Below, piece after piece: positions 9,113 to 22,940 of a DNA stretch of 63,055 bases (position 1 is the stretch's first letter; every line of letters begins with the position of its first letter). Origin of the DNA: Candidatus Omnitrophota bacterium (GTDB taxonomy: Bacteria > Omnitrophota > Gorgyraeia > B26-G9); contig JAZDHG010000040.1 in the NCBI GenBank assembly GCA_043806135.1, forward strand, positions 1 through 63,055, in the 5' to 3' direction. Under the pieces are notes generated by a model, which saw only the letters and a list, made by a program, of their open reading frames with translations, had not been told where the DNA came from and ran no database searches. A program made the translations under genes and the position numbers.

Positions 9113-10225
9113 GTGCAAAAGCTTAAGAGAAAAATAGCAAAGATTGTTTTAGAAGATGGTAGAATTTTCTCTGGCTTTTCTTTCGGGGCCGCCGGTACCG
9201 CATTCGGCGAAGTAGTTTTTAACACAAGCCTTGCCGGATATCAGGAAATTCTCACCGATCCTTCCTACAAAGGTCAAATTGTTACGATGACCTACCCTCT
9301 TATTGGTAATTACGGAGTAAATAATGAAGATGTTGAATCCAGAAAGCCTTTTGTTGAAGGGTTTGTTGTAAAAGAATGCTCACGCATTGCCAGCAATTGG
9401 CGCTCAAATAATACCCTGGATGCTTATTTGAAAGAGCATAATATTGTCGGCATTGAGGGGGTTGATACCCGTGCGATCACCCGCCATACAAGAGAGCTGG
9501 GGGCTATGCGGGCGGTAATTTCCACAGAGGATTTAGATGATAAAAGCTTGTTAAAAAAAGTAAAGGCAACGCCTGGACTTTTAGGGGTTGATCTGGTCAA
9601 GGAAGTTACCTGCGATAAAATCTGGCAGTATAATCAGAGCGGTGAAATTAAGGTTGTGGTTATTGATTGCGGTGTGAAATTAAATATTCTACGCTCTCTA
9701 GCTAAACGGGGATGTCAGGTTACGGTTGTTCCAGCGATTACCTGTGCTGAGGAAATATTGAAGCTTAATCCTGACGGGATATTGCTTTCCAACGGCCCGG
9801 GAGACCCGGCGGCGGTTACTTATGTTATAGAGACAGTTAAAAAATTATTAGGCAAATTACCTATGTTCGGTATCTGTCTGGGGCAGCAGATGCTCGGCCT
9901 AGCCTTAGGCGGGAAAACATATAAATTGAAATTTGGACATCATGGCGGTAACCAGCCGGCTCGAGATCTAAAAACAGGTAAGATAGATATCACAGTGCAG
10001 AATCACGGGTTTTGTGTGGACATAGATTCCCTGAACAAGGATGATATAGAAATAACGCATATAAACCTGAACGATAACACACTTGAGGGAATGCGGCATA
10101 AAAAACTTCCCGTATTTTCCGTGCAGTTTCATCCTGAAGCATGTCCCGGTCCGCATGACGCACAATATTTATTTGACCAGTTTATTGAACTAATTAAAAA
10201 TAATAAAGTAGCAAGAAGCAAGTAG
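9113..10225 (+). CDS. carA: Carbamoyl-phosphate synthase small (glutaminase) subunit
   Basis: GEVVFNT, SNGPGDP, GICLG (catalytic Cys) and QFHPE motifs. Confidence 0.96.
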   Translation: MQKLKRKIAKIVLEDGRIFSGFSFGAAGTAFGEVVFNTSLAGYQEILTDPSYKGQIVTMTYPLIGNYGVNNEDVESRKPFVEGFVVKECSRIASNWRSNNTLDAYLKEHNIVGIEGVDTRAITRHTRELGAMRAVISTEDLDDKSLLKKVKATPGLLGVDLVKEVTCDKIWQYNQSGEIKVVVIDCGVKLNILRSLAKRGCQVTVVPAITCAEEILKLNPDGILLSNGPGDPAAVTYVIETVKKLLGKLPMFGICLGQQMLGLALGGKTYKLKFGHHGGNQPARDLKTGKIDITVQNHGFCVDIDSLNKDDIEITHINLNDNTLEGMRHKKLPVFSVQFHPEACPGPHDAQYLFDQFIELIKNNKVARSK

Positions 10226-10323
10226 CGAGTAGCAAGATATTTAAAAAGAGTTAATAAAGTATGATATATAAAACATAAAAATTTTATAATAGTAATTTTT
10301 CTCGCTACTTTCTACTAGATACT
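10207..10323. repeat. Inverted pair of heptamer arrays (AGTAGCR)
   Basis: agtagca agaagca agtagcg agtagca (10207-10234) and complementary ctcgcta ctttcta ctagata ct (10301-10323). Confidence 0.65.
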
Positions 10324-10347
10324 AAACAAATGAAGTGAGCTTAAAAA

Positions 10348-19875: not shown

Positions 19876-21321
19876 ATGAGCGGAATTTTCGGAGTTGTTT
19901 CAAAAGGCAGCTGTATACAGGATCTATTCTATGGCACAGACTATCATTCACATTTAGGTACGGAATACGGAGGACTTGCTGTCCTGGGAGAAGATTTTTA
20001 CCGGCGCATACATAATTTAAGCCAGGGGCAGTTTAAGTCAAAATTTTTTGATGAATACCAGCAGATGAAAGGCAATAAAGGTATTGGGGTAATCAGTGCT
20101 TCTACTGTTCAGCCTATTTATGTGCACTCTAAATTTGGGCCTTTCTGCATTGTCAGCAACGGTTTTATCGAGAATTCACATGATATAGAAAAAGAGCTGC
20201 TTAAAAAAGGTATTTCTTTTGCCGAAGTCGAAAAAAACAGCGTTAACGAAACCGAACTTGTTGCTAAGCTTATTAATCAGGGTGATAATATCATCGATGG
20301 AATTGAAAAAATGTTTAAGCAAATTAAAGGCTCCTGCTCGCTGTTACTGCTTAATAAAGACGGAGTTTACGCCGCACGTGACAGATACGGATATACTCCT
20401 CTTGTGCTTGGACAAAAAAAAGATGCGATGGCTGTTACTACAGAAACCTGTGCGTTTTTAAATAATGATTTTAAAATAACAAAGTACCTGGGTCCGGGCG
20501 AGATAGTGTTGCTTAGCGAAGCAGGCCTGGTATCTAAAAAAAAGGCAACCGAGTTTAATCAAATCTGCGCATTTTTATGGGTATACACCGGATTCCCGGC
20601 ATCAAGTTATGAAGGTATTAATACCGAGGTGGTCAGAGAACGCTGTGGAAGATATCTGGCTAAACGTGATAAAGGCATGAAAGTAGACGTTGTAACAGGT
20701 GTTCCTGATTCAGGGATAGCGCATGCCATCGGTTATGCCATGGAAAGCGGTTATCCCTACAGAAGGCCGCTGATAAAGTATACGCCTGGCTATGGAAGAA
20801 GCTATACGCCGCCTTCACAGGAAACAAGAGATCTTGTGGCCAAGATGAAATTAATTGCAATTGAGGATATTATTAAAGGCAATAGAATCGTTATTTGTGA
20901 TGACTCGATCGTAAGGGGTACACAATTTAAGAATTTTACTATAAAAAAATTGCGTGAATCAGGCGCAAAGGAAATTCACATTCGCCCGGCTTGTCCGCCG
21001 CTCATGTTTCCTTGCAGATTTAATTTATCTACGAGAAGTATAGATGAACTTGCGGCGAGAAGAGCGATAAGGGATATTGAGGGGAATGATATAGAGGATG
21101 TTTCTGAATATGTTGATTGTAATTCACAAAAATATCAAAAAATGATAGACTGGATAAAAGAAGATTTAAAAGTTAACTCGCTTAAATATCAGACTGTTGA
21201 AGATATGGTTGCAGCTATTGGATTACCCAAGGAAAAGCTTTGTCTTTTCTGCTGGACCGGCAAATGCCAGACAGAAGTTTGCGCCAAAGAAAAAGCGAGC
21301 TGCGCTAACACGGGCAAATAA
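19876..21321 (+). CDS. PurF-like amidophosphoribosyltransferase with degenerate glutaminase domain
   Basis: MSG instead of MCG; HSHLG instead of LQHRG; no GHVRYST; intact DDSIVRGT and Fe-S Cys. Confidence 0.88.
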   Translation: MSGIFGVVSKGSCIQDLFYGTDYHSHLGTEYGGLAVLGEDFYRRIHNLSQGQFKSKFFDEYQQMKGNKGIGVISASTVQPIYVHSKFGPFCIVSNGFIENSHDIEKELLKKGISFAEVEKNSVNETELVAKLINQGDNIIDGIEKMFKQIKGSCSLLLLNKDGVYAARDRYGYTPLVLGQKKDAMAVTTETCAFLNNDFKITKYLGPGEIVLLSEAGLVSKKKATEFNQICAFLWVYTGFPASSYEGINTEVVRERCGRYLAKRDKGMKVDVVTGVPDSGIAHAIGYAMESGYPYRRPLIKYTPGYGRSYTPPSQETRDLVAKMKLIAIEDIIKGNRIVICDDSIVRGTQFKNFTIKKLRESGAKEIHIRPACPPLMFPCRFNLSTRSIDELAARRAIRDIEGNDIEDVSEYVDCNSQKYQKMIDWIKEDLKVNSLKYQTVEDMVAAIGLPKEKLCLFCWTGKCQTEVCAKEKASCANTGK

Positions 21322-21341
21322 TAATGTAGCGGAGAATAGTT

Positions 21342-22940
21342 ATGACAAAGTTTATTTTTATAACCGGCGGGGTTGTTTCAAGTTTAGGTAAAGGAATTGC
21401 TTCTGCGGCTATAGGCAAGCTGCTTGAATCAAGAGGGTTGAAGGTAACGATCATTAAGTGCGACCCTTATATTAATGTTGATCCAGGCACGATGAACCCT
21501 TTTCAGCATGGTGAAGTTTATGTTACGGATGACGGCGCAGAGACAGACCTGGATCTCGGGCATTATGAGCGGTTCACCAATGCAAAACTTACGCGTGATA
21601 ATAATATTACAACGGGCAAGATCTATTATTCTGTTATCAATAAAGAAAGAAAAGGTGATTACCTGGGTAAAACGGTCCAGATAATACCGCATATTACAGA
21701 TGAAATAAAAAACAATATTAAGAAGGTTGCTTACGGCAAAAAGATCGATGTAGTGATCGTGGAGATCGGGGGTACGGTGGGAGATATTGAAAGCCTTCCG
21801 TTTCTTGAAGCAATACGGCAGTTAAAACAGGAGCTGGGAAAAGATTATGCTATTAATATCCATGTAACTTTAGTCCCTTATATAAAAGCAGCCGGTGAAA
21901 TAAAAACAAAACCTACACAGCACAGTGTAGGCACTTTAAGGGAGATCGGAATTATTCCGGATATAATTCTTTGCCGTACTGAGAAAAAAATCAGCCGGGA
22001 GGCAAAAGAAAAAATAGCTCTTTTCTGTAACGTGGATGCCGATGCGGTAATTCCGGCAATTGATGTAAAAAGTATTTATGAGGTTCCTCTTACGTTTCGC
22101 AAAGAAAAGCTGGACAGCCTGATAGTAAAGCTCCTAAAGCAGCCTTGCCGGGATAGCGATCTGGATGATTGGCAGAGCCTGGTGGTAGAAAGACAGAAAG
22201 CTCCTGTGAAAGAGGTGCAGATAGCTGTTGTCGGCAAATATATCGCTCTTCAGGATGCGTATAAATCTATTTACGAATCGCTTGTGCATGGGGCGATAGC
22301 GAATAATGTAAAACTAATCATTAAGAAAATTGATTCAGAGGATATTGAAAAGCATGGAGCGGAAAAATATCTTAAGAATGCTAAAGGTATTCTGATCCCG
22401 GGCGGCTTTGGCAATCGCGGGATCGAAGGAAAAATAAAAGCAGTTAAGTTTGCGCGCGAAAACAATATTCCTTATTTCGGCATCTGCTTAGGTATGCAGA
22501 TAGCGGTTATCGAATTTTCCCGCAATGTTTGTGCGATGAATAACGCAAATTCCACAGAGTTTGATAAAAAGTCAAAGTATCCGGTCATCAGCCTTTTAGA
22601 AGAGCAGCGCAAGATAAAGGAAAAAGGGGCGACTATGCGTCTTGGGGCTTATGATTGCAATCTTAAAAAAGGAACGCGCGCGTATAGTGCATATAAAAAA
22701 GAAAAAATTCAGGAACGCCATCGCCACCGTTTTGAGTTTAACAACCAATACCGGGAGCGTTTGGAAAAAAAAGGCATGGTTTTCTCTGGGGTAAATCCTC
22801 AGAAAAATCTGGTCGAGATCATAGAGATCAAAGACCACCCATGGTTTGTATCCTGTCAGTTTCATCCTGAATTCAAATCGAAACCGGACAACGGGCATCC
22901 TTTGTTCAAGGAATTTATAAAAGCTTCTCTAAACAGGTGA
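21342..22940 (+). CDS. pyrG: CTP synthase
   Basis: [37 protein letters not shown] and QFHPE motifs. Confidence 0.97.

Follow-up and report, generated by a model that had tools for sequence, protein, structure and literature searches.

Contig JAZDHG010000040.1 of a Candidatus Omnitrophota bacterium (assembly GCA_043806135.1), analyzed here over its 63,055 nt and referred to as the window, carries a gene cluster in which three glutamine-dependent enzymes of nucleotide synthesis lie together with probable counterparts that have no glutaminase. The standard glutamine amidotransferases at these steps, found almost universally, are carbamoyl-phosphate synthase (CarAB), PurF and PyrG. We propose that the cluster encodes two parallel routes for three nitrogen-entry steps, and that the counterparts CarB2, PurF2 and PyrJ (hereafter, the twins) most likely take free ammonia; we assign this reading a probability of roughly 0.7. 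In the glutamine route, CarA with CarB1 would form carbamoyl phosphate, PurF1 would form phosphoribosylamine and PyrG would form cytidine triphosphate (CTP). In the ammonia route, CarB2, PurF2 and PyrJ would deliver the same three products, respectively, from free NH3; for CarB2 and PurF2 we infer these activities. The strongest evidence is the survival of the twins in genomes from which the glutamine enzymes are gone.

Paired nitrogen-entry enzymes in one gene cluster

Open reading frames (ORFs) and family profiles give the gene order carA-carB1-carB2-purF1-DUF1846(pyrJ)-purF2-pyrG-GAF/ANTAR at positions 9113-23655 on the + strand:

9113..10225, + strand: carA, carbamoyl-phosphate synthase glutaminase subunit (TIGR01368, 527.6 bits, cut-off 307; glutaminase motifs GICLGQQ and FHPE kept)
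10348..13572, + strand: carB1, large subunit of the CarA-partnered clade (TIGR01369, 1587.7 bits)
13600..16815, + strand: carB2, large subunit of a separate clade (TIGR01369, 1380.4 bits, cut-off 1027; NF003671, 1533.2 bits, cut-off 599)
16815..18194, + strand: purF1, canonical glutamine phosphoribosyl pyrophosphate (PRPP) amidotransferase (TIGR01134, 522.4 bits; N-terminus MCG)
18191..19714, + strand: pyrJ (DUF1846/UPF0371), 507 residues (PF08903, 569.6 bits, and PF20921, 191.9 bits, cut-off 27; NF010184, 788.6 bits, cut-off 631)
19876..21321, + strand: purF2, PurF-like, without a glutaminase site (TIGR01134, 226.4 bits, under the cut-off of 350; N-terminus MSG)
21342..22940, + strand: pyrG, glutamine-hydrolyzing CTP synthase (TIGR00337, 839.7 bits)
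22945..23655, + strand: gene for a GAF-ANTAR protein, last in the cluster (PF13185, E = 1.2e-20; PF03861, E = 1.4e-19)

Every enzyme gene from carA to pyrG except purF2 passes a curated NCBIfam cut-off. The gaps from carA to the GAF-ANTAR gene are 122, 27, -1, -4, 161, 20 and 4 bases, the negative values being a 1-base overlap of carB2 with purF1 and a 4-base overlap of purF1 with the DUF1846 gene, for which an alternative start methionine is possible 2 or 4 codons downstream. An initial annotation had listed seven co-oriented genes with carB2, purF1 and DUF1846 overlapping, and this layout is borne out by the + strand ORFs and their strong family matches, with the GAF-ANTAR gene to be added after pyrG. 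It had also described two divergent CarB proteins with a single CarA, and two PurF proteins, one of them without the glutaminase site. Gene counts over the whole assembly agree (one CarA over the cut-off, two CarB, one PurF over the cut-off and one PurF-like protein); full-length identity between CarB1 and CarB2 is 53%, PurF1 shares 29% identity with PurF2, and PurF2 has Ser for Cys1 together with altered glutamine-binding residues. As that annotation stated, the rest of the pur and pyr pathways lies outside the cluster: other contigs of the same assembly carry purD, purQ and a pair of transcarbamylase homologs, and a long glutamine-synthetase-like gene is on contig C47. The assembly comprises 2.24 Mb in 118 contigs, with 90.3% completeness and 3.95% contamination; named homologs assign its organism to Omnitrophota.

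The twins persist where the glutamine enzymes are missing

The distribution of the six enzymes was followed in 151 Omnitrophota genomes, the same set serving for each search (G labels denote sampled genomes, G000 being the present assembly). At E≤1e-50, the search gave no CarA in 19 of the 151. The sole CarB match belonged to the CarB2 clade in 14 of these 19 genomes, including the closed single-contig genome G143; the CarB2 search scored at most five candidates per genome, so that sole-CarB status was checked completely for 8 of the 14. In the remaining five CarA-less genomes no CarB appeared. A CarB1-type match was found in none of the CarA-less genomes. Obligate pairing with CarA therefore fails for CarB2, and on the CarB2 tree the nine sampled CarA-less rows require at least five changes of state.

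The other two steps gave a similar picture. PyrG was not found in 20 of the 151 genomes, 17 of which contain PyrJ. With contig-end fragments set aside, the search gave no canonical PurF in 16 genomes, and in nine of them PurF2 was the only PurF-like match. All seven PurF2-only genomes tested contain purD (G031, G037, G067, G069, G135, G075 and G097; G056 and G085 were outside this test). Five genomes of 94-97% completeness (G031, G037, G067, G069 and G135) have twins only: CarA, PyrG and PurF1 were not found in them, and CarB2, PyrJ and PurF2 are present, along with purD, two homologs of ornithine/aspartate transcarbamylase and glutamine synthetase. Among the genomes tested for these genes, two transcarbamylase homologs were present in nine of nine and glutamine synthetase in eight of nine. 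The presence of purD and the transcarbamylase homologs indicates that the twins-only genomes need phosphoribosylamine and carbamoyl phosphate, and the presence of glutamine synthetase indicates that glutamine itself is not missing.

One family provides a view of the purine step in its operon. Four genomes carry purB-purSL-LOG-purQ-PurF2-purF1-purM, and two more (loci L086 and L089, from G075 and G097) are without purQ and purF1 and keep PurF2. A purQ match over the cut-off was not found in six of nine genomes tested, and some lineages, as judged from the purS-purL pair without purQ at L086 and L089, may use a formylglycinamidine ribonucleotide synthase without its glutaminase.

Two further observations concern these genomes. 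At L086-L094 (families f13 and f18), the purine operon includes a LOG/lysine-decarboxylase-like gene (PF03641), placed after purSL and before purQ or PurF2. Neither CarA nor any CarB was found in G006 and G096 (96-97% complete), where PurF2, PyrJ and PyrG are present.

CarB2 forms a separate large-subunit clade

CarB2 retains the complete domain set of a large subunit, namely two ATP-grasp halves, the oligomerization domain and the MGS-like domain. Its matches in the sampled genomes split cleanly into those of 68-80% identity (54 genomes) and those of CarB1 types at 52-56%. In a FastTree phylogeny of 51 CarB proteins, from which one row was dropped (L146, 554 residues, our guess at the CarB1 place in G061), the 21 CarB2 rows formed one clade with a Shimodaira-Hasegawa-like support of 100. 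CarB1 of the window fell in a 30-row clade, all of whose members come from genomes with a CarA-like match; this side of the tree includes an 11-row subclade (support 100) whose genes adjoin a divergent CarA-like gene.

CarB2 departs from the 30 CarA-partnered rows at 24 columns in which those rows show at least 95% conservation; the differences include loss, around CarB2 residues 526-534, of the DTC...EF motif seen at CarB1 530-541. With what we take to be the CarB domain limits, clade-specific switches are densest in the oligomerization domain (7 of 25 conserved columns, with 14/175, 11/160 and 0/17 in the other domains). One review describes this domain as forming tetramers. Since the review gives a tetramer role only, the switches were not counted as evidence on CarA docking.

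The E. coli CarB large subunit alone can use NH3. Bacilli have dual carbamoyl-phosphate synthases for arginine and pyrimidines, and an alternative for the window would be that CarB1 and CarB2 share one CarA as their glutaminase and differ in allosteric control (arginine versus pyrimidines), CarB2 not acting as an ammonia enzyme. This arrangement would accord with the carB2 match to an equivalog profile for glutamine-type large subunits, whose cut-off it passes, and with six genomes of one family (G036, G038, G062, G102, G126 and G136) in which carA is followed directly by carB2 and then by carB1. The order carB2-carA-carB1 occurs in two genomes, so that with the window all three arrangements exist and gene order is silent on which large subunit CarA serves. 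A shared glutaminase is harder to reconcile with CarB2 as the sole CarB match in the 14 CarA-less genomes, with the independent state changes on the CarB2 tree and with the failure to find a CarB1-type match without CarA. In addition, the third CarB subclade has its own adjacent divergent CarA-like gene, so lineages needing a second glutaminase encode one. We therefore regard docking of CarA on both large subunits as rather unlikely.

That subclade represents a putative third kind of carbamoyl-phosphate synthase, in which the divergent CarA-like gene (304-366 bits, versus about 500-530 for ordinary CarA) lies directly upstream of a CarB of its own subclade. It was found at G012:C2:65451-69805 and also in G004, G117, G133, G065, G075, G081, G083, G095, G097, G002 and G011; in G075 and G097 it provides the only CarA-like gene.

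PurF2 is a PurF-like protein without a glutaminase site

In an alignment to B. subtilis PurF, with what we take to be the numbering of the glutamine-site positions, PurF2 has Ser in place of Cys1, HLG in place of HRG, Ser in place of the Arg of VRY, and ETE in place of DTE. The same alignment shows that PurF2 retains the DDSIVRGT PRPP loop as well as the four Fe-S cysteines. These features extend to the family. PurF2 homologs outside Omnitrophota include ones named Planctomycetota and Elusimicrobia. A search returned 8809 representatives at E≤0.001; of the best 150, 85 were 430-600 residues long, and with PurF2 itself 86 sequences were analyzed. No Cys occupies the nucleophile column in 70 of these 86 full-length members, where the residues include Gly (23), Ser (17), Ala (12) and Thr (6). 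Because the column varies among Gly, Ser, Ala and Thr, there is no conserved nucleophile at this position. Of the 70 Cys-less members, 69 keep the PRPP Asp and Ser, and conservation of the four Fe-S cysteines extends to 64-69. The comparisons show that PurF2 is unable to hydrolyze glutamine by the known mechanism. It probably acts like the transferase half of PurF and, failing both the PurF cut-off and the nucleophile, should not carry the purF label.

PurF2 could instead be something other than a phosphoribosylamine synthase, either a regulatory pseudo-subunit of PurF1 or a PRPP enzyme that makes another product. Its score of 226 bits against a purF cut-off of 350, the conservation of an N-terminal domain that is catalytically dead for glutamine, and the mostly unrelated genes around it are all compatible with such a role. 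However, PurF2 is the sole PurF-like gene in nine genomes, and purD accompanies it wherever tested; at L086 and L089 it holds the step-1 slot of a purine operon after loss of purF1; and the PRPP loop and Fe-S ligands are conserved. Taken together, these findings make a role outside phosphoribosylamine synthesis distinctly improbable, and we retain PurF2 as a putative ammonia-using enzyme of purine step 1.

Two other groups of PurF-like proteins were encountered. One, at G002:C43:32650-33999 and G011:C62:2069-3409, is 40% identical to PurF2, scores 314-317 bits with TIGR01134 and is located beside carA and carB. The other consists of weaker sole PurF-like matches (E = 1e-49 to 1e-56) in the small genomes G009, G013, G019 and G146.

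The DUF1846 protein belongs to the PyrJ family

The DUF1846 protein of the window matches PDB entry 7F00 with 538 bits over residues 8-505. This entry is SPD_0310 of Streptococcus pneumoniae, which an earlier paper called a hemin-binding protein (PMC9238395). A 2024 preprint (10.1101/2024.09.24.614635) reports that SPD_0310 is synthetic-lethal with pyrG in the pneumococcus, that cytidine rescues the defect, and that the purified protein converts uridine triphosphate to CTP with ammonia and not with glutamine; its authors, who describe PyrG as the sole CTP synthase known in all life forms before then, renamed the protein PyrJ. Judged by its match, the DUF1846 protein of the window is PyrJ, in the family of ammonia-dependent CTP synthases; PyrJ itself is a member of a described family. 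The initial annotation had paired the CarB and PurF proteins, and these pairs stand, but it left DUF1846 unexplained. With DUF1846 assigned to PyrJ, the cluster holds three glutamine/ammonia pairs rather than two: CarA-CarB1/CarB2, PurF1/PurF2 and PyrG/PyrJ.

The twins co-occur across the phylum

PurF2, scored as present at ≥60% identity, was found in 64 of the 151 genomes, the CarB2 clade in 54 and PyrJ in 68. The initial annotation had proposed checking the co-occurrence of the CarB2 clade, Cys-less PurF and DUF1846, and its proposal withstands this check: all three occur in 44 of the 151 and none in 74. Taken pairwise, PurF2 and CarB2 are both present in 46 genomes, PurF2 only in 18, CarB2 only in 8 and neither in 79. 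The corresponding numbers for PurF2 and PyrJ are 57 with both, 7 with PurF2 only, 11 with PyrJ only and 76 with neither, and those for CarB2 and PyrJ are 50 with both, 4 with CarB2 only, 18 with PyrJ only and 79 with neither. All six enzymes are found together in 30 genomes, among them that of the window. Two genera each include one species with all three twins and one with none (G049 versus G027; G105 versus G029).

Gene neighborhoods were compared at 63 PurF2 loci of the 151-genome sample, taken with ±9 kb and in some cases ending at contig ends. The upstream neighbor of PurF2 is pyrJ at 7 of the 63 loci, with carB2-pyrJ upstream at 5, and purine genes are neighbors at 6. A separate set of 15 loci was collected with patterns from the window's own peptides and is biased to near kin, so the phylum sample was used instead for counts. 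Within the close relatives, the constant core is carB2-pyrJ-purF2-GAF/ANTAR, with carA, carB1, purF1 and pyrG variable (L017, L027, L031). Among relatives more generally, gdhA precedes carB2 at L031, L035, L080 and L084. Some genomes with both sets keep a glutamine cluster carA-carB1-pyrG (G099, G048, G055) apart from carB2-pyrJ, and the two are fused in the window, G147 and G025.

The twins might also be plain redundancy, arising from horizontal transfer or from mixing during assembly and unrelated to the nitrogen donor. The draft state of the assembly, with its contamination, and the patchiness of the twins within families would be expected in that case. All the genes, however, lie on one 63-kb contig of even base composition, other assemblies show the same arrangement (L027, L031), conservation of the twins across the phylum is 60-80%, and each of them is without exactly the glutaminase part. 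Redundancy of this kind is accordingly very improbable.

Transcription and flanking genes

The genes immediately upstream of carA, and the hairpin that separates them from it, are as follows:

6032..7318, + strand: gene of the isocitrate/isopropylmalate dehydrogenase family (icd-like; PF00180, E = 1.2e-67; best NCBIfam matches are isocitrate dehydrogenases, all under cut-off)
7466..8857, + strand: gdhA, NADP-specific glutamate dehydrogenase (NF006929, 768 bits, cut-off 536)
8906..8956, + strand: intrinsic-terminator-like hairpin followed by U7, 3' of gdhA (14-pair stem, -25.5 kcal/mol, z = -4.89, 0 of 200 shuffles equally stable)

The strong hairpin and U-run at 8906-8956 make gdhA a neighbor that is probably not in the carA transcript. 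On this ground gdhA was rejected as an operon member, which limits the initial annotation's inclusion of GdhA in the system. What does stand from its dual-mode proposal is a glutamine set beside a glutaminase-less set, as seen in the co-occurrence of the twins and in the twins-only genomes. Glutamate dehydrogenase assimilation suits ammonium-rich conditions; the icd-like gene, a likely source of 2-oxoglutarate and NADPH, and gdhA fit an ammonia-rich nitrogen assimilation of the glutamate dehydrogenase style, as does the NfnAB/GltD-like gene pair at 2974-5287.

Between carA and the GAF-ANTAR gene, the intergenic stretches of the + strand showed no terminator-like site, and counts of promoter-like and terminator-like sites gave no excess over shuffles. 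We infer, as the simplest reading, that carA to the GAF-ANTAR gene would be expressed as one long transcript. A transcriptional switch between two nitrogen modes is not supported, as the genes look co-transcribed. Both routes would thus run together in this organism, apparently from one transcript, with the supply of ammonia and glutamine and the kinetics of the enzymes, rather than separate promoters, setting how the flow is split.

The last gene of the cluster encodes an ANTAR domain joined to a sensor (GAF) domain, as in ANTAR antiterminators, and its product is a candidate RNA-binding antiterminator; the gene is found at the equivalent position in close relatives (L017, L027, L029, L031). 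An ANTAR target is a two-hairpin RNA overlapping a terminator in the regulated leader. Shuffled sequences folded as well as the leaders upstream of carA, carB1 and purF2, and no ANTAR target could be named there. Rfam models at the gathering threshold found three tRNAs only in the whole window, and at E≤1 gave no match within 5700-24500.

Several features flank this region. Just upstream of the icd-like gene and gdhA, a gene pair at 2974-5287 (+ strand) resembles NfnAB or the small chain of glutamate synthase (GltD), with a DHODB Fe-S binding domain in one case and Fer4_20 plus Pyr_redox_2 in the other. The 734-base gap past the GAF-ANTAR gene contains a small ORF at 23894-23950 (+ strand), which follows a GGAGG-like site and encodes an 18-residue Lys/Ala-rich peptide. 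A PAS plus HD-GYP-type gene follows at 24192-25409 (+ strand); its listed start is 24390, and the frame extends upstream to an ATG at 24192 with a plausible coiled-coil/PAS beginning, an extension that is broken by an in-frame TAG at 24261-24263. Farther downstream, at 41824-50256 (+ strand), lies a trehalose/glycan gene run consisting of HAD plus trehalose phosphatase, a GH65 phosphorylase, an alpha-amylase family gene and GH57/DUF3536.

Weighing the evidence

A number of observations weigh against the proposal that the twins form an ammonia route. Among the twins, biochemical proof of ammonia use comes from the PyrJ family only, for the pneumococcal protein. A gene not found in a draft genome (72-99% complete) may have fallen into an assembly gap, and the incomplete check of sole-CarB status described above bears on the CarA-less genomes. 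Kinship among the sampled genomes causes the co-occurrence table to overstate the association, and 33 of the 151 genomes contain only one or two of the twins. Physical linkage of the twins is real but loose: about 50 of the 63 PurF2 loci have unrelated neighbors (M48 peptidase, LssY_C, hexokinase, RluA). The carA-carB2-carB1 order in six genomes would suit a CarA that serves CarB2. Finally, the interleaving of the genes, the short gaps and the lack of an internal terminator argue against alternate expression of the two routes.

A broader proposal is that Omnitrophota possess a complete glutamine-independent entry of nitrogen into nucleotides, consisting of CarB2, PyrJ and an ammonia-dependent PurF2 from a large family at present annotated as purF; that some lineages dropped CarA, PurF, PyrG and in places PurQ; that the window represents an intermediate expressing the two systems from a single transcript; and that CarB2 and PurF2 are two new enzyme classes. 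On present evidence we judge this wider claim to be evenly poised. A literature search, with the supplements of two key papers outside it, turned up no publication describing a stand-alone bacterial CarB clade, a functional ammonia-type PurF, or the three enzymes together.

If CarB2 and PurF2 do act on ammonia, an entire bacterial phylum would demonstrate that glutamine is dispensable for each of the three nitrogen-entry steps, which would save the ATP of glutamine synthetase in ammonium-rich settings. As judged from the size of the PurF2 family search, the name amidophosphoribosyltransferase would then misdescribe thousands of database entries. For these lineages, it would also be an error for metabolic reconstructions to count a genome without carA, purF or pyrG as auxotrophic or host-dependent. 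The cluster also offers matched enzyme pairs from a single organism for direct comparison.

Comparison with known systems

CarB2 has the full large-subunit architecture of E. coli CarAB (carbamoyl-phosphate synthase II). Compared with CarA-partnered CarB proteins, it is set apart by the 24 clade-specific switches and the loss of DTC...EF. Mitochondrial carbamoyl-phosphate synthase I is described as ammonia-dependent in a review (PMC6022934); unlike CarB2, which stands alone, that enzyme retains a fused dead glutaminase domain.

The Fe-S PurF of B. subtilis (PDB 1GPH/1AO0; TIGR01134) aligns with PurF2 over residues 3-395, with a second aligned stretch at the C-terminal Cys motif, and the PRPP loop and four Fe-S cysteines are retained. 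PurF2 differs from it in having no N-terminal Cys, in the altered glutamine-binding residues and in a score under the family cut-off. A Cys-less PurF' beside purF was described in Crenarchaeota by Brown, Hoopes, White and Sarisky (2011; PMC3261824), whose account also mentions continued use of ammonia by E. coli PurF that has lost its Cys. PurF2, likened here to PurF' by that description only, shares the missing N-terminal Cys and, in one Omnitrophota family (6 of the 63 loci), linkage to purine genes; PurF' itself, in that account, was named from archaeal genomes only and never assayed.

PyrJ of S. pneumoniae and the 507-residue protein of the window match over their full length and share both Pfam domains. 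The pneumococcal gene is a back-up for pyrG at a separate locus, whereas pyrJ of the window, flanked by purF1 and purF2, shares a cluster with pyrG, and in 17 Omnitrophota genomes PyrJ is present where PyrG was not found.

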